The notes under the pieces are model-generated. The model had not been told where the DNA came from and did no database searches. It was given only the letters and a program-made list of their open reading frames with translations. Below are positions 1,976 through 62,263 of a DNA stretch of 64,000 bases, piece after piece. The stretch's first letter is position 1. Every line of letters starts with the position of its first letter. Origin of the DNA: Flavobacteriales bacterium (lineage in GTDB: Bacteria; Bacteroidota; Bacteroidia; Flavobacteriales_F; PHOS-HE28); assembly GCA_016787995.1 (NCBI GenBank), contig JAEUTB010000188.1:9920-73919 (forward strand), read 5' to 3'. Made by a program: the position numbers and the translations under genes.

Positions 1976-3427
1976 TCAGAACTCCGCGCTCTTCGGCGTC
2001 CGCGGGAAGGGGATCACATCCCGGATGTTCCCCATGCCCGTCACGAACAGCACGAAGCGCTCCAGGCCGAGGCCGAAGCCCGCGTGCGGCACGGTGCCGA
2101 AGCGGCGCGTATCCAAGTACCACCACAGTTCGTCGGCGGGCACGTGCATCTCCTTCATGCGCGCTTCGAGCACATCCAGGCGTTCCTCGCGCTGACTTCC
2201 ACCGATGATCTCGCCGATGCCGGGGAAGAGCACGTCCATGGCGGCCACGGTGGTGCCCTTGTCGCTGTAGCCGAAGTCGCCGGGGCCGTTGGTGCGCATG
2301 TAGAAGGCCTTGATCTTGCCGGGGTAACCGGTCACGATCACCGGCTTCTTGAAGTGCTTCTCCACCAGGTAGCGTTCGTGTTCGCTCTGCAGGTCGATGC
2401 CCCATTCCACCGGGAACTGGAACTGCTTCTTCTGGTGCGGCTTGCTGCGCAGGAGGATCTCGATCGCGTCCGTGTAGGTGATCCGCTCGAAGGGGTTCAC
2501 CAGCACGAAGTTCAGGCGGTCGATGAGACCCATCTCCGCGCGTTGCTCCTTCGGCTTGGTGGCCTCCTCTTCCTTCAAGCGCGCATCCAGGAACTGCAGG
2601 TCGTCCATGCTGTTCTTCAGCACACGGGCGATGAGGTGCTTGCACAGGCCTTCGGCGAGGTCCATGTCGCCCGCGAGGTCCATGAAGGCGGCCTCGGGCT
2701 CGATCATCCAGAACTCGGCGAGGTGGCGCGCGGTGTTGCTGTTCTCGGCGCGGAAGGTGGGTCCGAAGGTGTAGACCTTGCCCAACGCGAGCGCGGATAG
2801 TTCGGCTTGCAACTGGCCACTCACGGTGAGACGTGATTCGGCACCGAAGAAGTCCTCCTTGAAGTCCACTTCACCGGCCTCGTTCAGCGGCGGGTTCTTC
2901 GCATCCAAGGTGCTCACGCGGAACATCTCCCCCGCACCCTCCGCATCGCTGGCGGTGATGATCGGGCTGTGGAAATAGTTGTAGCCGAGGCTGTCGAAGT
3001 ACTCGTGGATGCCGAAGCTGACCTGGTGGCGGATGCGGAAGATGGCGCTGTAGGTGTTGGTGCGGAAGCGCAGGTGGGCGTTCTCGCGCAGGAACTCCAG
3101 GCTGTGCTTCTTGGGTTGGATGGGATACTTCTCCGCATCGCTGTCGCCCAGCACTTCCACATCGGTCACCTGCATCTCCACGCGTTGGCCGCTGCCTTTG
3201 CTCTCCACGATCAGCCCGGTACACTTCACGGCCGCACTGGTGGTGAAGCGTGCACGTGTGGCGGCATCCACCTGTTCCTGATCGATCACGCACTGCAGGT
3301 TGCGGATGGTGCTGCCGTCGTTGAGGGCGATGAAGCGGTCGTTGCGGAAGGTGCGCACCCAGCCGGCCACGGTAAGGGTGGTGCCGGTGAGGGCGCTGTC
3401 GTCGAGGACGGACTTGATGGGGGTCAT
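1976..3427 (-). CDS. asnS: asparaginyl-tRNA synthetase
   Basis: Class II aaRS motifs FRAENSNTARHLAEFWMIEPE and GFGLGLERFV, plus an N-terminal OB fold (GWVRTFRNDRFIALNDGS). The start is placed at ATG 3427 (MTPIKSV) rather than the track start at 3460. Confidence 0.95.
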   Translation of the reverse strand: MTPIKSVLDDSALTGTTLTVAGWVRTFRNDRFIALNDGSTIRNLQCVIDQEQVDAATRARFTTSAAVKCTGLIVESKGSGQRVEMQVTDVEVLGDSDAEKYPIQPKKHSLEFLRENAHLRFRTNTYSAIFRIRHQVSFGIHEYFDSLGYNYFHSPIITASDAEGAGEMFRVSTLDAKNPPLNEAGEVDFKEDFFGAESRLTVSGQLQAELSALALGKVYTFGPTFRAENSNTARHLAEFWMIEPEAAFMDLAGDMDLAEGLCKHLIARVLKNSMDDLQFLDARLKEEEATKPKEQRAEMGLIDRLNFVLVNPFERITYTDAIEILLRSKPHQKKQFQFPVEWGIDLQSEHERYLVEKHFKKPVIVTGYPGKIKAFYMRTNGPGDFGYSDKGTTVAAMDVLFPGIGEIIGGSQREERLDVLEARMKEMHVPADELWWYLDTRRFGTVPHAGFGLGLERFVLFVTGMGNIRDVIPFPRTPKSAEF

Positions 3428-3576
3428 GGAAGTGCGCTGGGGCGTATCGCCGTGGAACAATTCGGCGCAAAGATGGAAAGCCTTGCCGTAAGGGGATCAT
3501 CCTAGCGCGGAAGGCGGCTCGGGATATGAGCGATGCCTCTATCCGGATCTCGTCCGAAAGCGTGACGTTCCGCGGA

Positions 3577-5097
3577 TCAGCGCTCGATGATGACTTTCAA
3601 ACAGCCATCAACCCAGCGTACGGTGTACCATCCAGGGGCGAGGTCCCGCAAGATCCGCGACAGGGCCTGGCCTTCGGGCATGGTCCATTGCATCACCATA
3701 CGTCCGGAGGCATCCACCAACTGCAATGGGAGTTCCGTGTCGCTATCCGTGCGCTGGATGGTGAACGCGCCGTTGTTCGGGTTCGGGTGAAGGTTGATCG
3801 CCGCCTTTTCGGTGAAGGTCACCGGAACGGCCTGTGAGTAGCTGGTGGTACCGTCAAGATCGGTCTGGCGCAAGCGGTAGTAGCTGGTGCCGGTGTAGGG
3901 CGCTGGATCATCGAAGGTGTAATGCAGTACCGTATTGGAATTGCCGGCACCGGCCACGGTCCCGACCGGTTCGAATGAAATGGCATCGCGGCTGCGTTCC
4001 ACGGTGAAGAAGTCATTGTCGCGTTCGCTGCCCGTGGCCCAGGTGCAGTGTGTGTAGGAGTTGTCCAGCGCTTGTGCTTCGAACGCGACGAGCTCGATGG
4101 GCAGGGGCGTGGCATCGTAGGCCATGGCCCAGATGTGTTCATCCTCGGGGTTGATCAGATCACTGAAGGGCACCGATGGCACCTGCACCTGGCGCAATAC
4201 GGGGTTTGTTTGAGAGGGAAGTGGTGGTTGCCAGGTACCCGATGTTTCCAGCCATCGTTGAGCGCGTATCGGACCCGCACCCAGGAAAGCGTCGTCGGCC
4301 GGGGCGTGGCTCAACAGCAGTGTTCCGGTGAACGCGGCGTTGGGAAGATCGGTAAGCCAGAAACGGTTCACAGTGTTGGCGCTGTTGTCGGCCACGGATG
4401 TACCCGCCATGTGCAACACGGTCTCATTCGTCGTTACCGGATACGGCATGTTGTTCACCGCTGTGGGATACGTGGCCACGGCGAGCAGGGTATTGGCAGG
4501 GAAGGCCGCGCCTGGGGTGAAGGAAAAAGGAAGGATCGTACCAGCCGCGTTGCTGAAGGGGATCGTATGTGCGCCGACATCGGCCCCCAGGGCCCAAATG
4601 AATCGACTGAGAAGGTCGGTGCTTTCGCTGCGCACGCTACCCCCGTTGTCCAGTACTGCGGTGCTGGCCGGGTTGAACACGGTGAAGGAATGTCCGTTCA
4701 GTCGAAGCACGGCTCCAAGATCCACCGTGCCGTTCGCTGCCGCAACCCTTCCGGCCATGGCATCCAGCAGCAGCGTCTTGTCGCCACCGGTGATCACCAG
4801 GTTTCGGAAATCGGTGATGTCCGCACCGGTGATGTCCTGCGCACCACCGTACAGCACGACCGAGCCGGTGCTCGTTGCCGTTGTGGCCGATCCTCCGCTG
4901 CTGTTGTCCCATTCGCCTTCCACCCGCACGCTGCCGTTGTTGGCGAAAAGCGCCGCTGCGTTCAGATGTACATCACCTTCCACCACGAGTTGCGTTCCAG
5001 TGTTCACCACGATGCTGACGGCCGATGCCTGGAAGACCGATTGGGCGTGGGTCCCATCACTTGCAACCACTGCCGTGATGAGGTGGAAGAGCAGCAT
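3577..5097 (-). CDS. secreted protein with T9SS C-terminal sorting domain
   Basis: The C-terminus LHPNPNNGAFTIQ...GWYTVRWVDGCLKVIIER is typical of a Por/T9SS CTD. A signal peptide follows the internal ATG at 5097 (MLLFHLITAVVASDGTHAQ). The track's upstream extension looks non-coding. Confidence 0.8.
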   Translation of the reverse strand: MLLFHLITAVVASDGTHAQSVFQASAVSIVVNTGTQLVVEGDVHLNAAALFANNGSVRVEGEWDNSSGGSATTATSTGSVVLYGGAQDITGADITDFRNLVITGGDKTLLLDAMAGRVAAANGTVDLGAVLRLNGHSFTVFNPASTAVLDNGGSVRSESTDLLSRFIWALGADVGAHTIPFSNAAGTILPFSFTPGAAFPANTLLAVATYPTAVNNMPYPVTTNETVLHMAGTSVADNSANTVNRFWLTDLPNAAFTGTLLLSHAPADDAFLGAGPIRAQRWLETSGTWQPPLPSQTNPVLRQVQVPSVPFSDLINPEDEHIWAMAYDATPLPIELVAFEAQALDNSYTHCTWATGSERDNDFFTVERSRDAISFEPVGTVAGAGNSNTVLHYTFDDPAPYTGTSYYRLRQTDLDGTTSYSQAVPVTFTEKAAINLHPNPNNGAFTIQRTDSDTELPLQLVDASGRMVMQWTMPEGQALSRILRDLAPGWYTVRWVDGCLKVIIER

Positions 5098-51081: not shown

Positions 51082-51813
51082 ATGGCCGCCACACACTACA
51101 AGATCGCCAATTGGGGTGACCCTGTCGGAGAGGGCGTTTCGGATTCACAGTACATCAATGTGACCGGTATCGCCAAGACCAATTCGCCAGCCGAACCAAA
51201 CATCGTGGCGAACGAGTACATCTGTGCGCGCCTTGCAGCAGCGGTTGGGCTACCAGTGCCACCTGGGTTCCTGGTCAAGAAGGACGATGAGCCATGGTTC
51301 GTGTCGATGGATTTCAACCTGGCCGGGGACGTGCTGCCGCCGATCATTCCCCAAATCCTGCTGGCACGCAAGCCTGAGCTGTGCGCTGGGATCGTTCTCT
51401 TCGACGCTTGGATCCTGAACCCGGACCGCCATGCCCGGAACCTGGCGCACGATACCACCACGGACGCCGTTATCATCTTCGACCATTCCCGAGCCCTCAT
51501 GCCCACCGATCTTCCGCAGCGGCAGTACGCCGAGGCCATGGTGGACAAGCCAGCCATTGGCGCTCACTGCTTGGGTACCATACTAAAGGACGCCAGCACC
51601 TTCAAATACTGGCATCAGCGCATCCTGGCCGTGGCCGAGCACCAGATCACGGATGCCCTGAACGATGCGGCTGAAGTTGGCCTTGAACCCGGCAACGTGC
51701 ATTTCTTCCGCCAATACCTCTTGGATCGGCGCCAGCGTTTGCCAAAGATTGTTGCCAATAACCCTGGGGCCTTCCCCAGTCTTACCTTAGGGACCCTCCC
51801 TTGGACACCATGA
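51082..51813 (+). CDS. HipA-like / PI3-4-kinase-fold protein kinase (uncharacterised subfamily)
   Basis: Catalytic-loop-like FDAWILNPDRHARNLAHD (DRHxxN, as in the HipA C-terminal domain and lipid-kinase fold). About 240 aa, no HTH partner upstream. Confidence 0.6.
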   Translation: MAATHYKIANWGDPVGEGVSDSQYINVTGIAKTNSPAEPNIVANEYICARLAAAVGLPVPPGFLVKKDDEPWFVSMDFNLAGDVLPPIIPQILLARKPELCAGIVLFDAWILNPDRHARNLAHDTTTDAVIIFDHSRALMPTDLPQRQYAEAMVDKPAIGAHCLGTILKDASTFKYWHQRILAVAEHQITDALNDAAEVGLEPGNVHFFRQYLLDRRQRLPKIVANNPGAFPSLTLGTLPWTP

Positions 51814-52661
51814 CCGAGCGCGTCCAATACCTCATCGCCCAGTACCAGGCCGACCCCTTGCGCAAGGAGCCCCGCAATGTGGGGGTGATCGCACGCATGG
51901 ACGGACGGACCCTTGCCCGCTTCATGGGCGAAAAGGAAGACGGCCGAATCGACGGACGGGAATTGCGATGGATGAGCTTCCCTGATGTTTATCGCCAGTG
52001 GGTATTCTTCTGGCGCGAGTCGGGGAATTCTGTTGCCCACTTGGAGCAGCTCCTCGCTTCCAATAAGGGCAACTACGGGCTGGTGCGCGGGGGTAAGGTG
52101 TCCGATATAGGCAGCGACAGCCTAGAGCAAGTGGTGGACCACCTCTTCACCCGCTTCGTGAGCGGTGGATTCGCTGAAGCCATGCGCACAGTGGACCAGA
52201 TCACGGTACCGAGCAGGAAGTTGGAGAACGCGATCGAGATCGAGCTACTTGGCATGGACATCCTCGTGGAGGATGATATGCCCAAAGAAGGCGTGAAGCA
52301 TCCGGTACGCCGCAAACATGTCGTGCAAGGCCGCAGAGAGGTTCCTTTCACTCCAGCCTTCTCCCAGGAGAATGGGGCGCTGTGGCTGATCGAGACCTTT
52401 GACTTTACAGGGCCGAAACAACGCCCACTCTTTGAGCATGCCGGCTTTACGGCATACATGTTCAGCGATATCCGCAAAGCACGAGGCACATCCAAGGTTC
52501 AAGCCATCTCCGTGCTGAAGACGGACCCCGAGGCCGAAGAGAGCAAGCATATTGCCAATAGCAGGAAGGTACTCCTGAACGAGGGCGAAGTGGTCGATTG
52601 GAACGACGAGGTCCAACGCAAGGCCTTCCTCGAAGAGCGCCGCCATGTGGCGGTTGGCTGA
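51810..52661 (+). CDS. DUF3037-like protein (uncharacterised), translationally coupled to the kinase
   Basis: ATG 51810 overlaps the kinase stop (ATGA). The N-terminus VQYLIAQYQADPLRKEPRNVGVIARM resembles the DUF3037 signature as I remember it. The rest is unassigned. Confidence 0.55.
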   Translation: MTERVQYLIAQYQADPLRKEPRNVGVIARMDGRTLARFMGEKEDGRIDGRELRWMSFPDVYRQWVFFWRESGNSVAHLEQLLASNKGNYGLVRGGKVSDIGSDSLEQVVDHLFTRFVSGGFAEAMRTVDQITVPSRKLENAIEIELLGMDILVEDDMPKEGVKHPVRRKHVVQGRREVPFTPAFSQENGALWLIETFDFTGPKQRPLFEHAGFTAYMFSDIRKARGTSKVQAISVLKTDPEAEESKHIANSRKVLLNEGEVVDWNDEVQRKAFLEERRHVAVG

Positions 52662-52729: not shown

Positions 52730-53578
52730 TCACCCCAGCGACTTCATTCCCTTGAGCAGCGCTACGATTTGATCATGGTGTCGCGCGAATGCTGGATCAA
52801 TGACTGTGCTGGGAATTGGACTAGGATCCATTTTCTCAAAGACTATGATGCCATATGGCTTGCCGGCATCAGTGTTGTTGAACCGGTACACATAGAACGA
52901 AGTACTGTGCATGTTCATCTTGGTCAATACATCATCTGTAATTGAGCAAGCCTTCTTCATGTATGCCCTGTAGCTCGATCCGTTACCCTTCCATACCGGG
53001 ATGCCGCTATCAATGAACGGCGAGCTTGACCACCCCTTCGCTATGAATCCCTCATTGACGGGATATTTAGGTCGACCTCGCTTGCCGTGCAGCGGATTCT
53101 GGGCTTCTCGGCCAACGAGTACGAAGTGATCATCGATATAGCGATATAGGCTTACGCGACCTTGGCCACCGGCTGAATCGAAGAACTCCTTGAAGCAGTA
53201 CTTAATCGTTGTGCTGCAAAGTTCGAAGTAATCACGGCGCGTTGCCTCCACCTTCTTTCTTGACTGTTCCAATTCAGCTTCGAGTACCAAAAATGATGTC
53301 ACTTTCGACTTCTCAATACCGGAAATAACAATTCCAATAGCACCCAGTATGACACCTGATGCTGTTAGGACAGGGTTCATCTGCTTCCAACTATATCCGA
53401 ACATCACGATTGTATCGAGATCCGACTTAGTGTCTGCAAGCAGCCATACGTAGCCACCAGAAATGGTGAACAACTCTGCTCTGAGGCGCTTCAGAAAGTC
53501 GCGAACAGGGGCAATCATCCATGCGATGAAAATTGCTAGAGCATAGAGAAGTATGTATAAAATCTGTTCCGTCATCAT
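52730..53578 (-). CDS. membrane protein with cytoplasmic GAF-like domain (uncharacterised), distal gene of the R-M operon
   Basis: At least two TM helices (ILYILLYALAIFIAWMIAPV, VLTASGVILGAIGIVISGI), a coiled segment, and a C-terminal alpha/beta domain with a weak GAF-like pattern (GRVSLYRYIDDHFVLVGRE...GKPYGIIVFEK). Visibly more AT-rich than its surroundings. Confidence 0.6.
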   Translation of the reverse strand: MMTEQILYILLYALAIFIAWMIAPVRDFLKRLRAELFTISGGYVWLLADTKSDLDTIVMFGYSWKQMNPVLTASGVILGAIGIVISGIEKSKVTSFLVLEAELEQSRKKVEATRRDYFELCSTTIKYCFKEFFDSAGGQGRVSLYRYIDDHFVLVGREAQNPLHGKRGRPKYPVNEGFIAKGWSSSPFIDSGIPVWKGNGSSYRAYMKKACSITDDVLTKMNMHSTSFYVYRFNNTDAGKPYGIIVFEKMDPSPIPSTVIDPAFARHHDQIVALLKGMKSLG

Positions 53579-53763
53579 TCTCTGCTATTTGACCCATACT
53601 TAATAGGCACCTCCGCCGCCATCCCCAACCCCACCTTCTCCTCCGCAGGTGTCACGTCGAGCGGAGCCGAGACGCGCACCTGCCCGTTCATCAGCAGCGG
53701 CAGCAACCAGTCCCGCAGCGGCGGGAGCTCCTGATCACCACAATATGACCCTGATGTTGTCAC
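53575..53763 (-). pseudogene. orphan HsdS C-terminal tail (relic of the original hsdS 3-prime end)
   Basis: Encodes ELPPLRDWLLPLLMNGQVRVSAPLDVTPAEEKVGLGMAAEVPIKYG. Compare the HsdS internal segment ELASLRDWLLPLLMNGQVRVAEAEEKVG...GLAMAAEPQTPYG. Confidence 0.6.
53609..53730. repeat. direct repeat copy 1 (hsdS CR2/tail coding sequence)
   Basis: The 57-nt block 53674-53730 differs at 3 positions from 54478-54534. Additional shared blocks: ctccgccgccatc.ccaaccc and caccttctcctccgc. Confidence 0.8.
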
Positions 53764-55769
53764 TTCCCTATTTTGGACTTAACCGGCTTAGCTCCGCCCG
53801 TAGGCACCAGACAATTTTCCCGCAACCACTTCAGCCCCCATTCCCACTCACTGAACTCAATGTCCATCTTATGCTCATGCCACTCGGCTGATGCAGCGAT
53901 GAAGATATTCTTTTCCGAAGTCGGTTTGCCGTCCTTCAGCAAGTCGTTCCAAGCCGAATAGAGCGTGGCGACCACCTCGCAACGTTCCGTCCTCAGGGGC
54001 TTCATGAGGCGCACAATGCGCTCTGCTTCTGCGAGGTGACTTCCAAGCAAGGTCTCTGCTCGTTTCACTGCAACGCCCACATTCGGGCCGCTGTGATATT
54101 GATACATGATACCACCCGAACGCAGATCCTTTTCCTCGACAATCCCCCAACGGTGACGCTGCATCAGCGACTCAACCGCTCTTCGGCTCTTGATATCAAC
54201 GGGGCCCGCCGCATCGCGGATCGCATCCCTCCGATGGTCGTTTCCAAGATGGCCTTCAAGGATGTGCTCGATCTTCTCAGCCTTGGTGCGACCTAGCCGG
54301 TGATCTTTGTTGGATACATGTACCACCCATGCGTTAATGGCAGCACGGTCTTCCAGTGCGAATGTGAGCGGCGCTGGCTTGCCGTACGGTGTTTGTGGCT
54401 CCGCCGCCATCGCCAACCCTTCGGTCGCCGAAGCCCTGGGCGAAGGCGTACCCACCTTCTCCTCCGCCTCCGCCACCCGCACCTGCCCGTTCATCAGCAG
54501 CGGCAGCAGCCAGTCCCGCAGCGACGCGAGCTCCCGGTTCTGAGCCTCGAGTTTCCGCTGCTCATCGAACATGGGTCGCGCGATCTTCTCGAATGCGCTG
54601 ATCACTTCCTTATCGGCCAGGACGACCTTCAAGCCGAACAGATCATCCTTGCCAATGGCGCCGAAGGTGGTGCCTGCCGTATCGCGGCGTTGGAAGATCT
54701 GCTCGAAGTACTTCATCACCTCGTAGAGGTAGGCAATGGCTCCATGCTTGCTGTTGAGGGCAGCCAGACCACGACCAATGGCACAATCTTCAAAGGCCAC
54801 GTTCATGGTGCCAACAGGGGCTCGTACACTGAGCAGAATGTCCTCAGACTTGGCGCGGCGAGTAGGCTGGGTCGTGAACATGCGGGTAAGTGGGAAGCGT
54901 GTTCCAAAGTCCGTTGACCCTTGAAAGAAAATGCTACCCTCACCGGAATCGTTGTAGGATGAACCGGGCGGTGATTGCCCCATCGTAATCGTGGCAATAT
55001 CACTGAGTACTCCGGCTCCCCACCCCTCCGGCACCTCCCGCTTCAGCTCCGCGTTGTACACCATGGGCCCGCCGCTGCTCTTGTAGGGCTTGCCTTCCAG
55101 CTTTGGCTTGCCCAGGCGCTTGGCCTGCACGGTGCTCATCGGGAAATCGAACTGCACGAACCAGTAGTCGTACAGCAACTTGGCCATGGCCACCAGCTCC
55201 GCGTTGATCCGCTGGTTCAGCGTGATCTTGGCGTCTAAGGCGGAGAGGACGGAGGCGATGCGCTTCTGTTCGTCAAGCTCAGGGAGCCGTACCGGGAAGT
55301 CGGGAAAATCCGCGATGGGTAATCGATCAACCGTTGCGCCAACGATCGTGTTCCGCTTGACAACGCCGCGCCATTCGTCGCTGAAGAAGTAGTAGTACAA
55401 GAACTCGGGATCGGCCTTCTTGCGATCAACCCTGATCAAAGCCATCCTACGACCCAGACAACAGCGCAGGTCCTCGGGTATTAGGGCGTATCGATTCAGG
55501 GTCGCCTCATAAGAGAACACAATGTCGTCCTTTCTAGGCAGCACGCGTTTGGTCCATCGAGGGAACTCTCCTTCAGCAATGTGCCTAACCGATGAAAGGT
55601 CAAGACGACCATCCTCAGTGATGTTCTTGATGCCCAGGAATACAGGCCCTTCGACCGATGGTGTCGGTGTGGCATGTGGTCCATCATAGACCCCTTCCGC
55701 GAGCCAGCTGATCGTACGATGTTGCCAGTTCTGCCGCATAGGAACTACCTCGTCAACAACTGCCTTCAT
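53760..55769 (-). CDS. hsdS: type I R-M specificity subunit with about 235-aa non-canonical C-terminal extension
   Basis: Two TRD/conserved-region halves (...VPEGWGAGVLSDIATITMGQSPPGSSYN..., ...LRDWLLPLLMNGQVRV). The ORF then continues in frame for about 235 aa unrelated to HsdS. TGATG overlap with hsdM. Confidence 0.85.
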   Translation of the reverse strand: MKAVVDEVVPMRQNWQHRTISWLAEGVYDGPHATPTPSVEGPVFLGIKNITEDGRLDLSSVRHIAEGEFPRWTKRVLPRKDDIVFSYEATLNRYALIPEDLRCCLGRRMALIRVDRKKADPEFLYYYFFSDEWRGVVKRNTIVGATVDRLPIADFPDFPVRLPELDEQKRIASVLSALDAKITLNQRINAELVAMAKLLYDYWFVQFDFPMSTVQAKRLGKPKLEGKPYKSSGGPMVYNAELKREVPEGWGAGVLSDIATITMGQSPPGSSYNDSGEGSIFFQGSTDFGTRFPLTRMFTTQPTRRAKSEDILLSVRAPVGTMNVAFEDCAIGRGLAALNSKHGAIAYLYEVMKYFEQIFQRRDTAGTTFGAIGKDDLFGLKVVLADKEVISAFEKIARPMFDEQRKLEAQNRELASLRDWLLPLLMNGQVRVAEAEEKVGTPSPRASATEGLAMAAEPQTPYGKPAPLTFALEDRAAINAWVVHVSNKDHRLGRTKAEKIEHILEGHLGNDHRRDAIRDAAGPVDIKSRRAVESLMQRHRWGIVEEKDLRSGGIMYQYHSGPNVGVAVKRAETLLGSHLAEAERIVRLMKPLRTERCEVVATLYSAWNDLLKDGKPTSEKNIFIAASAEWHEHKMDIEFSEWEWGLKWLRENCLVPTGGAKPVKSKIGK
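54409..54534. repeat. direct repeat copy 2 (inside hsdS)
   Basis: Partner of 53609-53730, offset 804 nt. Together they bracket the C-terminal extension module of HsdS. Confidence 0.8.
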
Positions 55770-57388
55770 CAGTTCACGTGTAGCGTCGAAAGGCCATCAA
55801 GGATGGCTTTATTCAAGGCAGCCCCCTGTTCGAACATGCCCTGGAGCCTTTTCTCGCGTATATCAACTTCTTGCCGGAATTGAGCTTCGGTGATGTCCTC
55901 GTGATTCAACTTAATCTCGAAGTACTGGCCAGCACTGAATGAGTAGTTCTTGGCCTTGATATCCTCATAAGATACCACCACTGCGAAGTCGTCAACAGTT
56001 TGGTGCCTGTTGAATGTGGTGATGATGAGGTCCTCCTCAGTTGGGGACAGCAAGGTCTTTTGGTTCTTGCCATCCTTTACAGTCGTCCCCAACTTGCTGG
56101 CATCCATCAGTACGATGTCACCCTTGGTGTTCGCCTTGTCCAGAAAGAGCACGCTCACATTGGTGCCCGTGGTGGCGAAGATGTTGCTGGGCATGCCCAC
56201 CACACCGCGCAGCATGCGCCGCTCCACCAATTGCTCACGGATCTTCTTGTCGATCCCGCTCTGGGCGGTCACAAAGCCGGTGGGTACCACAATGGCCGCC
56301 TTGCCCTTAGGCCCCAGCATGTGCATGATGTGCTGGATGAAGAGCAGGTAGATGGCCATCTTATCCTTCTCCTTAGTGGGCACGTTGGGAATACCGGCGA
56401 AGAAGCGGTCGGTGTTGGCCTTGTTGTCCAGCTCGTCCCGGTAGTCGCTGAAGTCGAGCTTGAATGGCGGGTTGCTCACGATGTAGTCGAAGCGCTCCGG
56501 CCAACTGCCCCCCGAATAGGGGTGGCGGATGGTATCCCCTTGGATGATGTTCGGGATGGAGTGCACCAGGTTGTTCAGGACCAGGTTCAGGCGCAGCATG
56601 CTGCTGCTCTTCTGGCTGATGTCCTCGGCGTAGAGGCTGCATTGCTTCTCCCCAATGGCGTGGGCCAGGCTCATGAGCAGCTGGCCCGTGCCCGCACTGG
56701 GGTCGTAGCAGGTCACGTCCTTCACCGGCCCATCCACCAGAATGGCGGCCATGATCTTGGCGATGGCGTGCGGGGTGTAGTACTCGGCGTACTTGCCGCC
56801 GCCGTCCTTGTTGTAGTCCTTTATCAGGTACTCGAAGATGGTGGCGAAGAAGTCGAACTTCTGGGTGAAGATGGCCTCGAAGCTGAAGGGCACCAGCTTG
56901 TTCACGATGGCCCGGCAGAAGGCATCCCGCTTGGTGGGCGAGGTGATGAACTGGCTGAGCGCATCGAAGAGGATGATCTTTTCGCCGGTCTCCTCCTTCA
57001 CGCTGAAGATGTCCGTGTTCTTGACGGCGATGGCGTGCAGCGTGTCGTCGAAGAGCTTGTGGAACTCCTCCCGGTTCTGGTTGTTGTAGAGGTAGGTGAG
57101 CGTGTGCTCGCGCTCCAGCTTGGCGCAGTCCGGCCCCAGGCGGTGCAGCAGCTTCGCGTAGTCCTTGTCGCTGTATCCCGCAGCCACCTTCTCCCAATCC
57201 TCGGCCTTGGCCAGCTTGGGGTCCAGCTGCTTCACCTCGTGGGCGAACTTGTCGTTCAGGAACTTATAGAGGAATGCCTGCGTGATGATCTTGTACTCGT
57301 TGCCGTCGTTGCCCAGCCCGTAGCTAGCGCACACGGCCTTCAGTTCATCGATCAGCGCCTTGGTCTTGGTGTTCAGGTCGGTCACCAT
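55769..57388 (-). CDS. hsdM: type I R-M N6-adenine DNA methyltransferase subunit
   Basis: HsdM N-terminal domain, AdoMet motif YDPSAGTGQLL, catalytic VSNPPFKLDF. The ATG at 57388 overlaps the hsdR stop (ATGGTGA). Confidence 0.95.
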   Translation of the reverse strand: MVTDLNTKTKALIDELKAVCASYGLGNDGNEYKIITQAFLYKFLNDKFAHEVKQLDPKLAKAEDWEKVAAGYSDKDYAKLLHRLGPDCAKLEREHTLTYLYNNQNREEFHKLFDDTLHAIAVKNTDIFSVKEETGEKIILFDALSQFITSPTKRDAFCRAIVNKLVPFSFEAIFTQKFDFFATIFEYLIKDYNKDGGGKYAEYYTPHAIAKIMAAILVDGPVKDVTCYDPSAGTGQLLMSLAHAIGEKQCSLYAEDISQKSSSMLRLNLVLNNLVHSIPNIIQGDTIRHPYSGGSWPERFDYIVSNPPFKLDFSDYRDELDNKANTDRFFAGIPNVPTKEKDKMAIYLLFIQHIMHMLGPKGKAAIVVPTGFVTAQSGIDKKIREQLVERRMLRGVVGMPSNIFATTGTNVSVLFLDKANTKGDIVLMDASKLGTTVKDGKNQKTLLSPTEEDLIITTFNRHQTVDDFAVVVSYEDIKAKNYSFSAGQYFEIKLNHEDITEAQFRQEVDIREKRLQGMFEQGAALNKAILDGLSTLHVN

Positions 57389-60300
57389 GGCGATCGTCCG
57401 TGGAATTCGTTCATGTATTCGCGCAGCACGCAAGCGTTGATGATATCGGCCCCGGCGGGGTCCCAATCCAGTTTCTGCTTGTCCAGCGCGCTGGTCACCA
57501 GCTTCATCAGCATCTGTCCGAAGTAGGCCTCGTTCGCCAGCAGCTTACTGTTGCCGCTCACCTGCGCATCGGCCTCCCGCTTCACGTCCATCAGCAGGGC
57601 GTTCACCTGGCTCTCGCGCTGGCTGATGTCGCCGCGCTCCAGGATCCGCTTATGCACCACTGCGAACTTCCGGTCGTGCTCATACTTGGCCTTCAGCAGG
57701 TCGTTGCGGCGGTTCAGCTCGGCCACCTTGTCGTGGATTCTGCGCAGCTCGCCGATGTTGGCGGTCATCTCCTCCTGGCCTACCTCATCCAGGTTCTTGC
57801 GGTCGAAGAGGCGCTTCAGTTCCTCGTACAGACTGATGAACTCCGGGTCCTTGGGGTCGAAGTTGGCGGCCAGCGCTTCGCGGGTGCGGCGCAGGGTGTT
57901 CTTCAGCTCGTCAGCGATGCGCAGTTCGTCCTCGCTCACCTTGCGGAACAGGAAGAGCACGTTCTCCAGCGCCACGTTCAACAGGTTGGTGCTGTCCACG
58001 TTGTTCTGCACCGCGTCCTTCAGGTTCAGCAGGTCCAGGTGCCGGGCGGCCTCGTTGTGCAGGGTGGCCAGTTTGCGGAAGTCCAGCCGGTCCACCAGTT
58101 CATAGTGGCCGAGCAGCCGCATCAGGTTGTACAGGCTGCGAGCGTTCTCCAGCGCCTTCTTGATCCCCAGCATTTCCCTACGGTCCTGGATCTGGCTGAT
58201 CTGCTGGCTGAAGACCTCGGCGTTGCTGAGGTCGAAGCGGAAGAGACGCTCCTGGATGTCGGCCAACTCGGCCTCGATCTCCTCCTTGCTCTTGAACAGG
58301 CTGCTGTACGTGCCCATCTCGTCGCCCAGCTCGGCTTGCAGCTCCTCGAAGTAGGCCTTGTTGGTGGCGTCGAACTCCTTGGTGATGTCCGCGAAGTCCA
58401 CCACATAGCCGTAGCGGTGCTTCTTGTAGGTGCGGTTCACCCGGGTGAGGGTCTGCAGCAGGTTGTGGCTCTTCACCATGCGGGCCAGGTACAGCTTCTT
58501 CAGCCGTGGCGCATCGAAGCCGGTGAGCAGCATGTTGTACACGAAGAGCAGGTCGATCTGGCCGCCCTTGAAGTTCTCCACCTCCTCGTCCCGCGCCTCC
58601 TTGTCGCCCACATCGTGCAGGATGAGGCTTGCTGTGAGCTTGCGCTTGTGGCGGGTGGTATAGTCGCCATAGCTCGCGGCGGGCTCGGCGGCGATGGCGT
58701 AGTCCGCCACCGTTTCCAGCGTGCGCAATTGCGGGTTGTACTTGGCCTTGAACACCTCCAGCAGCTTCTCTGCCTGCTCGCTGCTGTCGCACACCACCAT
58801 ACCCCCGATCGAGTGGTCGTCCAGTCGTTGGCGGCTCTTCACGAAGTCCTCCACGATGTAGTCCAGCAGCGGTTCCACGAACCGGGCATGGGCATACACG
58901 AGCTTTTTGTTGCCGCTGCCCTTCAACACCTCCAGTTCCTCCAGGGTCTTCTTCAGCTGCACCTTGTAGCCGGTCTCGATGCCTTCCCGGATCAGCTTCA
59001 GGGTGTAGCCGTCGGCGATGCTCTGGTTGTAGTAGTACTTGTGGATGTAGTCGCCAAAGAGGGCCTTGCTGCTGCGGTCCTCACCAATCAGCGGCGTACC
59101 GGTAAGGCCGATCATGATGGCATCGCGGTCCGCGTTCACCAGGTTCGCGAGGAAGCTGCCCTTGGGGTCGTAGCTGCGGTGTACCTCGTCCAGGAAGAAC
59201 ACGCGCTGGGTCTTGATGGCGTAATCGCCGCCTTTGATCACATCCGTCTCCTCCTTGAACTTCTGGATGTTCACCACGGTGATCTCGCGATCCCCGCGGT
59301 CGTTGTGGACGGCACCTGGCTTGCTGAAGTCCTTCACCATCTCGTCGCGCGAGTTCACCACATGCACCTTCAGCCCGCGCATGGTGAACTCCCGCTTGGC
59401 CTGTTTCAGCAGGTCCAATCGGTCCACGATGAAGAAGAATTTAGGCACGATGCCCTTGCCCTGGAAGTAGTCCGTCAGGTACTGGACGTTGTAGTAGGCC
59501 AGCGCGGTCTTGCCGCTGCCCTGCGTGTGCCAGATGATGCCCCTCTTCACTCCCTTCTCCAACTTGGCCTCTATGGCCTTGGTGGCGAAGAACTGCGGGT
59601 AGCGCATGATGTGCTTCTCCACGCCCTTCTCGGCGCGCACGTACGCAATGCAGTACTTCAGCACCGTGGCCAGTCGCTCCTTGCTGCACAGCGAGGTGAG
59701 GATGCGGTTGGTGGGCGTGCCCGGGTGCTTGTTGGTGCCGAACTCCGGCGAGTGCTTGATCACCGCCAGGTTGTTATCCTTCAGCACCAGGTCCTCCAAG
59801 GTGCCGTCCTCAGGCTGCAGCAGGGTAGTAAGGTCAAGCTGCTCCTCTTCCCGGAAGCGGTTGAAGTGGGCGCTGCCATACGAAGCGGTGGCATAGAAGG
59901 CCCCTTGGATGGGTTCGATGTCCTCCGGGTCGTACTCCATGTTATTGGAGAAGACCAGCAGCTGGGTCAGGTTGATGAAGCGCCGGAACTTGGCGTTCTT
60001 GAACCGGGTGTCGATACGGTCGCGCTCTTCAAGGATACCCTGGTGATTGTTCGGCTTCTTCACCTCGATGAAGGCCAGCGGTATGCCGTTCAGCAGCAGC
60101 GTGATGTCCGGCCGGAACTCATCCTCCCCGTTCTTGTAGGTCAGCTCTGTGACCACATGGTAGCTGTTCCGGCTCGGGTCCTTGAAGTCGAAGAGCTTCA
60201 CCCCCGATGCCGAGATGAGCTTGGTGTAGAAGGCCTGGCCGAGGTCCTCGTTATCCAGTACCAACTTCACCGCCTCCAACTCCCGCTTGATATCGTCCTT

Positions 60301-60465
60301 GGACAGCTCCGGGTTCAAGCGCCCCACGCTCTCCAGGAAGATGTCCGTGAAGATGTTCGTTTCCGCATCCCATATGGCCTTCCTGAGCGGCAGGTACGTG
60401 TAGCCCAGCCTGCACAAGTGCAGGATAGCGGGGAGCTTCACGCGGGTGTTCTCGTTGAAGGCCAT
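57382..60465 (-). CDS. hsdR: type I R-M restriction endonuclease/translocase subunit
   Basis: N-terminal PD-(D/E)xK (RPDITLLLNGIPLAFIEVKK). SF2 helicase motifs HTQGSGKTALA and FFLDEVHRS. C-terminal helical domain. Confidence 0.95.
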   Translation of the reverse strand: MAFNENTRVKLPAILHLCRLGYTYLPLRKAIWDAETNIFTDIFLESVGRLNPELSKDDIKRELEAVKLVLDNEDLGQAFYTKLISASGVKLFDFKDPSRNSYHVVTELTYKNGEDEFRPDITLLLNGIPLAFIEVKKPNNHQGILEERDRIDTRFKNAKFRRFINLTQLLVFSNNMEYDPEDIEPIQGAFYATASYGSAHFNRFREEEQLDLTTLLQPEDGTLEDLVLKDNNLAVIKHSPEFGTNKHPGTPTNRILTSLCSKERLATVLKYCIAYVRAEKGVEKHIMRYPQFFATKAIEAKLEKGVKRGIIWHTQGSGKTALAYYNVQYLTDYFQGKGIVPKFFFIVDRLDLLKQAKREFTMRGLKVHVVNSRDEMVKDFSKPGAVHNDRGDREITVVNIQKFKEETDVIKGGDYAIKTQRVFFLDEVHRSYDPKGSFLANLVNADRDAIMIGLTGTPLIGEDRSSKALFGDYIHKYYYNQSIADGYTLKLIREGIETGYKVQLKKTLEELEVLKGSGNKKLVYAHARFVEPLLDYIVEDFVKSRQRLDDHSIGGMVVCDSSEQAEKLLEVFKAKYNPQLRTLETVADYAIAAEPAASYGDYTTRHKRKLTASLILHDVGDKEARDEEVENFKGGQIDLLFVYNMLLTGFDAPRLKKLYLARMVKSHNLLQTLTRVNRTYKKHRYGYVVDFADITKEFDATNKAYFEELQAELGDEMGTYSSLFKSKEEIEAELADIQERLFRFDLSNAEVFSQQISQIQDRREMLGIKKALENARSLYNLMRLLGHYELVDRLDFRKLATLHNEAARHLDLLNLKDAVQNNVDSTNLLNVALENVLFLFRKVSEDELRIADELKNTLRRTREALAANFDPKDPEFISLYEELKRLFDRKNLDEVGQEEMTANIGELRRIHDKVAELNRRNDLLKAKYEHDRKFAVVHKRILERGDISQRESQVNALLMDVKREADAQVSGNSKLLANEAYFGQMLMKLVTSALDKQKLDWDPAGADIINACVLREYMNEFHGRSPW

Positions 60466-61366: not shown

Positions 61367-62263
61367 TCACCACACCACCCCCGCATCCTCCTCCTCTTCC
61401 AACGCCTCTTGCACGCTGGTGGGCAGGGCATCGAGCAGGTCCAGGCCGGTGCTTTGTTCGATCGCGTCCACCGTGGTGCGGTAGGCGTACCAAGGCTGGG
61501 CGGTGGCGCTGGCGCTGTTGGGCATGTCCACGGCGATCACACGGGCGCCTTCGGTGCTGATGCGTTCCAGGTCGTTGCTGTCGTCGGGGATGATCACGAG
61601 CACCTTCCAGAAGCGGGCGGGCACGGCGATGGCGCCGCCGGCGAGGTGGGTGGTGAACACGCCTTGCGCGTTGGTGCCCCCGTTGCCGTAGCCACCGGCG
61701 ATGGTGTAGATCTCGTAACCGTCAGCGATGAGGTCGCGGGCGAAGGCCTCGAGTTGGAACCAGGTGTCCTGGTTCATGTCGGGCGCTTGGGGTGCGATGT
61801 TGGTGAGCAGGAAGGTGGCGGCGTTGTCGGCATCGGAGGCGTCGCGATCATCGCTGGGGCAGAGATGGCCGCGGTCGAAACCGGTGCCGCTGTAGGCGAA
61901 GGTGCTAACGGCGTAGAAAGAGGCGGGCAGCAGCGGGTCGGGTTCGAAACAGTCGCAGCGTTCGGCGCTGCCTTTCCACGCGGCGCTCAGGTGCCAGCTT
62001 ACCCAGCGGGCCTGGCCGCGGCTGTTGTCGTAGCCTGCGGTGAATTGCGGGTGAACGATCAGGTAGTTGTTGGCGGCCACCACGTTGGCGATGGCGCCGC
62101 TGGGATTGCCCAGGGCCATGTTGTCGCCGCGGGCGTTGTCGCTGGTGGGCGTGGGCTCGGGGTCGGGCTCGGGGATCTCCACCTCCTTCTGGCAGGCGGC
62201 GAAGAGCAGCACGGCGGCCAGCAGCAGCGGCGCGCGGGAACGCGAATGGGGAGAGCGGAACAT
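61367..62263 (-). CDS. secreted DNA/RNA non-specific endonuclease (NucA/EndoG beta-beta-alpha-Me family) lipoprotein
   Basis: Lipobox LLAAVLLFAAC. Catalytic GFDRGHLCPSDDR (DRGH motif) followed by NIAPQ. Confidence 0.85.
   Translation of the reverse strand: MFRSPHSRSRAPLLLAAVLLFAACQKEVEIPEPDPEPTPTSDNARGDNMALGNPSGAIANVVAANNYLIVHPQFTAGYDNSRGQARWVSWHLSAAWKGSAERCDCFEPDPLLPASFYAVSTFAYSGTGFDRGHLCPSDDRDASDADNAATFLLTNIAPQAPDMNQDTWFQLEAFARDLIADGYEIYTIAGGYGNGGTNAQGVFTTHLAGGAIAVPARFWKVLVIIPDDSNDLERISTEGARVIAVDMPNSASATAQPWYAYRTTVDAIEQSTGLDLLDALPTSVQEALEEEEDAGVVW

Follow-up and report, generated by a model that had tools for sequence, protein, structure and literature searches.

Why does the specificity subunit of a type I restriction-modification (R-M) system run on into a second folded domain, and why is the 3' end of its gene present twice? 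Both questions are raised by a stretch of 64,000 nucleotides (nt) from a Flavobacteriales bacterium (assembly GCA_016787995.1, contig JAEUTB010000188.1, positions 9,920 to 73,919). We refer to this whole stretch as the window and give all positions in its coordinates unless another locus is named. On the minus strand of the window, hsdR, hsdM and hsdS are followed by an open reading frame (ORF) of 62 amino acids (aa) and by a gene for a 282-aa protein with transmembrane (TM) helices and a GAF domain (TM-GAF). The answer that we consider probable is that this HsdS carries a DarG-like domain in a slot with one copy of the hsdS tail on either side, and that the cargo of the slot is exchanged by homologous recombination at the duplicated tail. 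The genes and the main parts of HsdS are as follows.

57382-60465, minus strand: hsdR, type I restriction subunit of 1027 aa (Pfam HSDR_N, SWI2_SNF2, ResIII and T1R_D3-like; 89% nt identity to the related locus L004).
55769-57466, minus strand: hsdM, N6-adenine methyltransferase, ORF of 565 aa (Pfam N6_Mtase, 2.7e-61).
53760-55769, minus strand: hsdS, 669 aa (ORF list).
54453-55769, minus strand: HsdS core, aa 1 to ~439, with two target recognition domains (TRDs) and the central and distal conserved helices (PADLOC, Pfam).
53775-54365, minus strand: extra C-terminal domain, HsdS aa ~469-665 (AlphaFold2, Foldseek, phmmer).
53575-53763, minus strand: tail B, the second HsdS 3' end, a 62-aa ORF in the -1 frame (ORF list, homology to L004).
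52730-53578, minus strand: TM-GAF gene, 282 aa (AlphaFold2 predicted local distance difference test score (pLDDT) 86; GAF structures match at probability 1.0).

The HsdS of the window has the makeup of a type I specificity subunit: it contains two TRDs with conserved helices, and hsdM and hsdR lie directly upstream. The PADLOC Specificity_I model PDLC03068 covers aa 34-437 at 1.4e-101, the Specificity_I models end at aa 437-439, and Pfam Methylase_S matches the protein in two stretches. No Pfam or NCBIfam model matches the last ~230 aa. The layout that a first-pass annotation had read from the DNA, a 669-aa HsdS made of a two-TRD body and an extension and followed by an ORF with a second HsdS tail, is confirmed by the ORFs and by PADLOC. 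The hsdM ORF has 565 aa compared with 539-542 aa in the gene calls of its relatives (L004, L189 and L190), so the true hsdM start is probably further in.

The second copy of the gene end is a direct repeat of the first. The elements of the repeat are as follows.

54470-54534, minus strand: tail A, the distal conserved HsdS helix (ELASLRDWLLPLLMNGQVRV), repeat copy A (repeat search, four-tail alignment).
53667-53731, minus strand: repeat copy B, 65 nt (repeat search).
53647-54467, minus strand: 821-nt segment between two 17-nt blocks, with the linker, the extra domain, the stop and the second copy of the distal helix (three-way junction alignment).

The two copies match over 65 nt with six mismatches (91% identity) at a start-to-start spacing of 803 nt, and a match of this length and identity inside 3.5 kb is far past chance expectation. 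The longest exact block between them is 31 nt. Both encode the identical 16 residues LRDWLLPLLMNGQVRV, and this core of tail B differs from that of tail A by a single synonymous base, a near-identity that would fit either gene conversion or selection on the small ORF. Further shared blocks measure 21 nt (53611/54399) and 17 nt (53630-53646 and 54451-54467, 100% identical, spacing 821 nt). The tail-B ORF starts with a GTG that overlaps the hsdS stop (GTGA), and its TGA stop shares an ATGA with the start codon of the TM gene. When 803 or 821 nt are removed in silico, the reading frame is kept and HsdS, now 463 or 457 aa long, ends in tail B. There is no further copy of the tail DNA elsewhere in the source genome. 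These repeats bear out the earlier description of a module with a copy of the hsdS 3' end on each side, and its 57-nt repeat core with three mismatches was correct; the offset of 804 nt that it gave is 803 nt by the repeat search.

Related loci, which we reached via homologues of the downstream TM gene, show what else this position can hold. The hsdS of L192 encodes only 437 aa, and its TRD2 and tail share 90% DNA identity with window positions 55283-54451. After the tail, L192 continues directly with ...AEAEEKVGLAMAAEGAGKYTKGGKSS* and enters the TM gene via an ATGA overlap; the TM product is 75% identical to that of the window. In a three-way alignment, L192 follows the left flank of the window up to GCGGAGGAGAAGGTGGG and the right flank thereafter. 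L192 is thus collinear with the window except that it lacks the 821 nt separating the two 17-nt blocks, and the GCGGAGGAGAAGGTGGG block common to both flanks is where the crossover falls. L194 is likewise empty at this position: its single tail leads straight into the TM gene. A third form is found in L190, which is syntenic with the window from hsdR through a HipA-like gene. Its order is hsdS (460 aa, with its own stop), a 224-aa gene, a second tail, the TM gene, a 283-aa gene and the HipA-like gene. The second tail of L190 (3830-3967) is decayed, and the cargo ahead of it (3140-3814) encodes a 224-aa membrane protein that has a TM segment at its N-terminus and matches neither Pfam nor PADLOC models. 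On the strength of these alternative forms, we regard the tail-flanked position as a slot with variable content: empty, filled with an in-frame DarG-like domain, or filled with another gene. The first-pass annotation had predicted that recombination between the repeats would give back an HsdS of normal length, coupled to the TM gene, and this extension-less form exists in L192 and L194. Its proposal that a module was inserted, or a tail swapped, by recombination within the hsdS 3' end gains support from the natural alleles L192, L194 and L190.

Tail A is read in frame into the extra domain. In the reading that we favor, tail B would be the original 3' end of hsdS, which has kept its natural stop and its overlap with the TM-GAF start. 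The DNA that encodes the conserved tail (distal helix and linker) would act as a homology arm, and accessory cargo would enter or leave the slot by general homologous recombination. Entry could occur by a Campbell-type single crossover with a small circle made of tail and cargo, or by a double crossover with a donor that is already flanked. The outcome would be the alleles described above, that is, empty (L192 and L194), with a fused domain (the window and L004) or with another gene (L190). We infer this route from the alleles. Insertion would be the more economical direction because adjacency of hsdS and the TM gene is the commoner state.

How old is the duplicated tail? The closest other locus, represented by L004 and L005, has an extra domain that is 82% identical at the protein level and an hsdR and hsdM that are 89% identical at the DNA level; the TRDs differ. 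The block made of tail A, domain and tail B has 81% nt identity between the window and L004/L005. Homology between the window and L004 reaches as far as 53611, a position within the end of tail B, beyond which the genes differ. An 18-nt insertion is common to both B tails and missing from the A tails. The tail B of L004 has no start codon at its beginning, the first being an internal ATG in AWMLPLL, and it is decayed, with conserved residues lost (LRAWMLPLLLNEVVV). Judged from these alignments, the tail duplication is old and common to the window and L004/L005.

After the hsdS fusion, the closest relatives carry a conserved trio of genes, whose products are a TIGR04255-family protein of ~255 aa and two further proteins of 173 aa and ~140 aa. 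Two different type I families have this trio (with T1R_D3-type and EcoEI-type HsdR), and it may accompany the domain as an accessory module. Its positions are as follows.

L004, 7094-8777: trio after the hsdS fusion.
L106, 4972-6672: trio after the hsdS fusion.
L107, 4967-6674: trio after the hsdS fusion.

The duplication of the tail is not confined to this lineage. We compared the tail of each locus with the 400 nt after its own stop in ~146 loci. Second tails were found 6-65 nt past the domain stop in L010, L050, L064, L129, L146 and L120, and each of them matches its own tail A. L010 comes from the same genus as the source and belongs to a different R-M family. Overall, a second tail lies directly after the domain in ~5% of the ~146 loci tested, and ~95% have no repeat. 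We interpret the second tails as original gene ends because those of L010 and L064 end at the natural HsdS stop. In the metagenome set, a control in which tails were compared with the downstream regions of other loci was contaminated: tails from one HsdS family also hit genuine second tails at other loci. A bias in reading frame, as expected from frameshifting or obligatory coupling, was considered and rejected: relative to the domain ORF, the first five cases were all in the -1 frame, and the metagenome set added second tails in frames 0 and +1. There is also no slippery heptamer ahead of the hsdS stop.

What is the cargo of the window? An exhaustive phmmer search with HsdS aa 440-669 matched 1,211 cluster representatives at E<1e-3, of which 792 pass E<1e-10, mostly at the C-terminal end of proteins of 580-720 aa. 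Methylase_S was present in 54 of 75 sampled matches, and a few were type IIG or MmeI-like enzymes. The exhaustive search was required to see the family, as a word-indexed homologue search with the extension returned 8 proteins only. Pattern scans followed by tblastn confirmed relatives in 223 stretches of a one-genome-per-species collection and in 364 metagenome stretches. From the pattern scans we kept 160 loci, 80 of which are genome loci from Bacteroidota, Pseudomonadota, Acidobacteriota, Planctomycetota, Verrucomicrobiota, Nitrospirota, Bacillota and others. Most of the 160 loci have the extra domain at the end of an ORF of 500-830 aa. Neither the domain of the window nor any of 80 domain sequences from the family matches a Pfam model, even at E<=10, and a sequence-profile search of the PDB with the domain gave nothing relevant. 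The extension is therefore a widespread domain family that has no Pfam or NCBIfam model and is habitually fused to the C-termini of HsdS in many phyla. It aligns to the last ~180 positions of the PADLOC models PDLC03039 (MTase_I), PDLC03196 and PDLC03088 (Specificity_I), so the domain is also fused to HsdM-type methyltransferases and is silently part of existing defense profiles. We found no account of an HsdS-fused DarG-like domain in the literature searched.

These results change the view of the extension given in the first-pass annotation, which had called it foreign and unrelated: it belongs to a widespread HsdS C-terminal family, and ~95% of the fusions have no flanking repeat. The annotation had also considered that the 669-aa protein might represent a conserved architecture without repeats. 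The conserved architecture was found, and the repeats are usually absent yet present here. As for a free-standing form of the extension elsewhere, both phmmer and tblastn place it almost always at an HsdS C-terminus.

A fragment of the domain was seen outside any hsdS in another genome of the same genus (L105, G096:C218, positions 2653-2760). It comprises the last 36 domain codons only, with 74% nt identity to window positions 53866-53782, and the same conserved intergenic sequence comes directly after it. By eye, the N-terminus of the ORF that follows resembles the TIGR04255-type gene after the domain in L106 and L107. The fragment is a deletion remnant.

The structure-prediction check proposed in the first-pass annotation gave a confident fold. 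AlphaFold2 modeled the extra domain with a pLDDT of 94.2 (98-row alignment) as a winged helix followed by a helical bundle. The top Foldseek matches in the PDB are 7yk3_B/D (probability 1.0, E 9e-3, template-modeling score 0.53 by query and 0.63 by target), and the next matches are PadR/MarR winged helices that cover the N-terminal half only. PDB 7YK3 is the DarTG complex of Mycobacterium tuberculosis; the DarG fragment in it is the C-terminal, DarT-inhibiting domain, to which DUF4065 proteins are homologous (PMC13621843). From their length of 187-188 aa and this description, chains B and D would be the DarG C-terminal domain (CTD). Alignment with hhalign to a thin profile of eight SocA_Panacea sequences from related genomes gave an E of 0.073 and a probability <1% over 106 columns; in this weak profile alignment the K..K, GP and W signature positions coincide. 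Based on the predicted model, the extra domain most resembles in fold the DarT-binding CTD of DarG, and hence the SocA/Panacea type. The likeness covers the best structural match, the size of ~190 aa and the layout of a winged helix plus helices.

DarTG2 sits in type I R-M operons (PMC12255303), a setting that the present locus shares and that makes DarTG2 a plausible source for the extra domain. There are also clear differences. The extra domain has no macrodomain and no match to the SocA_Panacea model PF13274, and it is covalently fused to HsdS, or sometimes to HsdM or a type IIG enzyme, and is not half of a two-gene toxin-antitoxin pair. DarT itself was rejected as a partner: a search made without a positive control did not find it (PF14487) in the source genome or in 12 domain-carrying genomes. 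The genes after the fusion are heterogeneous and include hsdR (often), Schlafen/AlbA_2-HATPase_c_4, RhuM, Fic, YhcG, reverse transcriptases and others. DarG-CTD and Panacea domains work by binding or holding a partner, and for this reason we propose by analogy that the extra domain would be a module tethered to the M2S core, where it would bind a partner or serve as a guard without DarT. The winged helix might also bind DNA.

The model of the TM-GAF protein begins with 2-3 TM helices, continues with a long helix and closes with a GAF domain; no family model matches the protein. Its homologues are found after hsdS (L192 and L194), beside Thoeris ThsA/ThsB on one contig, and near PcfJ/PcfK in Flavobacterium phragmitis. 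Given this predicted architecture, it may be a single-gene membrane effector. As a cognate partner of the extra domain it was rejected on two grounds. The TM gene mostly occurs without the domain (L192, L194, L191 and the Thoeris-adjacent contig), and the domain mostly occurs without the TM gene, which none of the 131 other genomes of the family has. At 51082-52661 on the plus strand, a HipA-like kinase gene (243 aa) overlaps a 286-aa gene without a family match, and this pair is convergent with the TM-GAF gene. The TM-GAF gene, the 283-aa gene and the HipA-like gene are syntenic in L190 and L193, and this trio may be one module. At the other end of the operon, just past hsdR, a DNA/RNA non-specific endonuclease gene (Endonuclease_NS, 4e-45; 61367-62263, minus strand) lies at the edge of the lower-GC island.

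A short peptide in the flexible linker between the HsdS core and the extra domain recurs in HsdR.

54384-54419, minus strand: linker motif LAMAAEPQTPYG, 16 aa ahead of the folded extra domain (pattern search).
58666-58698, minus strand: AIAAEPAASYG in HsdR, the same short motif as in the HsdS linker.

In six frames of the 3.3-Mb genome, the motif [AG][ILMV]AAEP...Y has two copies, both in the R-M system, and a degenerate copy lies at ~53596-53631 in tail B. The motif forms the natural C-terminal tail of the extension-less HsdS in L194 and L190, with a degenerate LAMAAEG...Y in L192. It also stands 16 aa ahead of the extra domain in other HsdS families, it has the same position in L106, L107, L108 and L010, and it recurs in the HsdR of L004 and L106. 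From this distribution the peptide could be a docking peptide or a recombination joint.

Although we consider the slot reading probable, several points weigh against it. The single ground for the direction of insertion is the adjacency of hsdS and the TM gene in three of five alleles. Support for recombination comes from the comparison of alleles among related loci, and recombination within this population is a prediction; the alleles document the contents of the slot and not the birth of the first arrangement of tail, cargo and tail. The tail-B core of the window is near-identical to tail A and lies in an ORF with overlapping start and stop codons, which leaves room for a function of this ORF. 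On the side of the cargo, the likeness to DarG-CTD and Panacea is at the level of the fold only, with a marginal Foldseek E (9e-3) and an hhalign E of 0.07 at a probability <1%, and PF13274 matches 0 of the 80 family members. Moreover, no single partner of the domain emerges, as the downstream genes vary among loci.

The same repeats could also belong to an active phase-variation system, in which the tails would repeatedly excise, and perhaps re-integrate, the 0.8-kb module, and the population would make both the long HsdS and a short form coupled to TM-GAF. The 31-nt exact block, the two in-frame deletion products, the natural existence of the predicted short form (L192 and L194) and a tail-B core kept or converted near-identical to tail A agree with such a switch, and the tvr locus shuffles hsdS segments via circular intermediates guided by direct repeats (PMC6265443). 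The features of a phase-variable hsdS are found here in part: flanking repeats are present (65, 21 and 17 nt), and there are no alternative TRD copies (silent hsdS'), only the distal helix being duplicated. Pfam scans detected no integrase or recombinase gene in the larger ORFs from ~43.7 kb to the window end at 64.0 kb, and none lies within ~10 kb of the locus. The 65-nt repeats have 6 mismatches, the orthologous tail B of L004 has decayed, which is unexpected for a maintained switch, the separate assembly contig L189 has the long form only, and ~95% of the family members have no repeat. Active phase variation, the switching between two HsdS forms that the first-pass annotation had envisaged, is thus unlikely. 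We read the repeats as a scar because of the missing recombinase, the imperfect repeats, the decayed L004 repeat and the long form in L189, although the 31-nt exact block still allows for a rare RecA-type deletion. In the source strain, deletion would be an occasional RecA-type event and no programmed switch.

Tail B might instead be a functional gene, encoding a translationally coupled free distal helix that modulates assembly of the methylase core or acting as a translation relay from hsdS to TM-GAF. This would account for the GTGA and ATGA overlaps at the two ends of the ORF and for the 16 core residues that are identical to tail A with one synonymous change, and the second tail of L010/L008, an ORF of 29 aa, has an ATG of its own and a natural stop. 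It fits poorly with the L004 copy, which starts only at an internal ATG and has lost conserved residues, with the other second tails, which lie in all three frames relative to the domain ORF, and with the family as a whole, most members of which have no such ORF. We find a functional tail B improbable.

A broader reading would join these elements. The duplicated tail would be a recombinase-free cassette system in which circles of tail and cargo move modules (the DarG-like domain, small membrane proteins) among type I operons that share the tail. The 0.8-kb module would toggle between a guard-bearing HsdS and a plain HsdS with the TM-GAF effector, and AAEPxxxYG on HsdR and on the HsdS tail would be the docking site of the guard. 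As a whole we think this combination has little chance of being right.

Finally, an assembly artefact, in which two hsdS alleles of a metagenome bin would have been collapsed or chimerically joined to give the second tail, can be rejected with near certainty: the source is a metagenome-assembled genome (74% complete, 271 contigs) and the conserved tails common to hsdS alleles could mislead an assembler, but L189, a contig of a separate ENA metagenome assembly, matches 7,980 nt at 100% identity with both tails included, the HsdS and TM proteins also occur on a 196-kb contig on record, the layout recurs in L004 and L005, which come from two other samples, and the repeat copies are diverged and below read length. 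L189 also rules out the assembly duplication that the first-pass annotation had allowed for.

The slot reading, which we retain, has parallels in known systems. In the pneumococcal tvr (SpnIV) locus, hsdS is reshaped through direct repeats and circles, in a largely TvrR-dependent manner that moves TRDs (PMC6265443). Both loci have parts flanked by direct repeats that can leave as a circle and re-enter, as may occur here. They differ in that tvr has the dedicated tyrosine recombinase TvrR and swaps TRDs, whereas no recombinase was found near the window locus, where the distal conserved helix makes up the repeats and the cargo consists of an accessory domain or gene, not of a TRD. Recombination at conserved hsdS regions also underlies the 'Domain Movement' of hsdS in Helicobacter pylori (PMC3077401). 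As in TRD swapping, conserved hsdS segments give the homology for exchanging adjacent variable DNA; what sets the unit in the window apart is its position beyond the distal conserved region, with a copy of the duplicated gene end on either side. A third parallel is with accessory genes in type I operons, such as PrrC, which is embedded in the EcoprrI type I R-M operon, and DarTG2 in enteropathogenic Escherichia coli. These operons likewise host defense genes, and in the present family RhuM, Fic, Schlafen/AlbA_2 and YhcG are found downstream. The difference is that one cargo here is read in frame as a part of HsdS.

Type I operons often house extra defense genes, and the route by which these entered is rarely visible. 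Here, one orthologous locus is seen in three states (empty, with a fused domain and with another gene), and a duplicated gene end lies at the joints of the filled states. This would offer a concrete, testable route by which defense islands may evolve in a modular way without the enzymes of mobile elements. The HsdS-fused DarG-like domain, in turn, is a candidate link between restriction enzymes and guard mechanisms of the toxin-antitoxin type.

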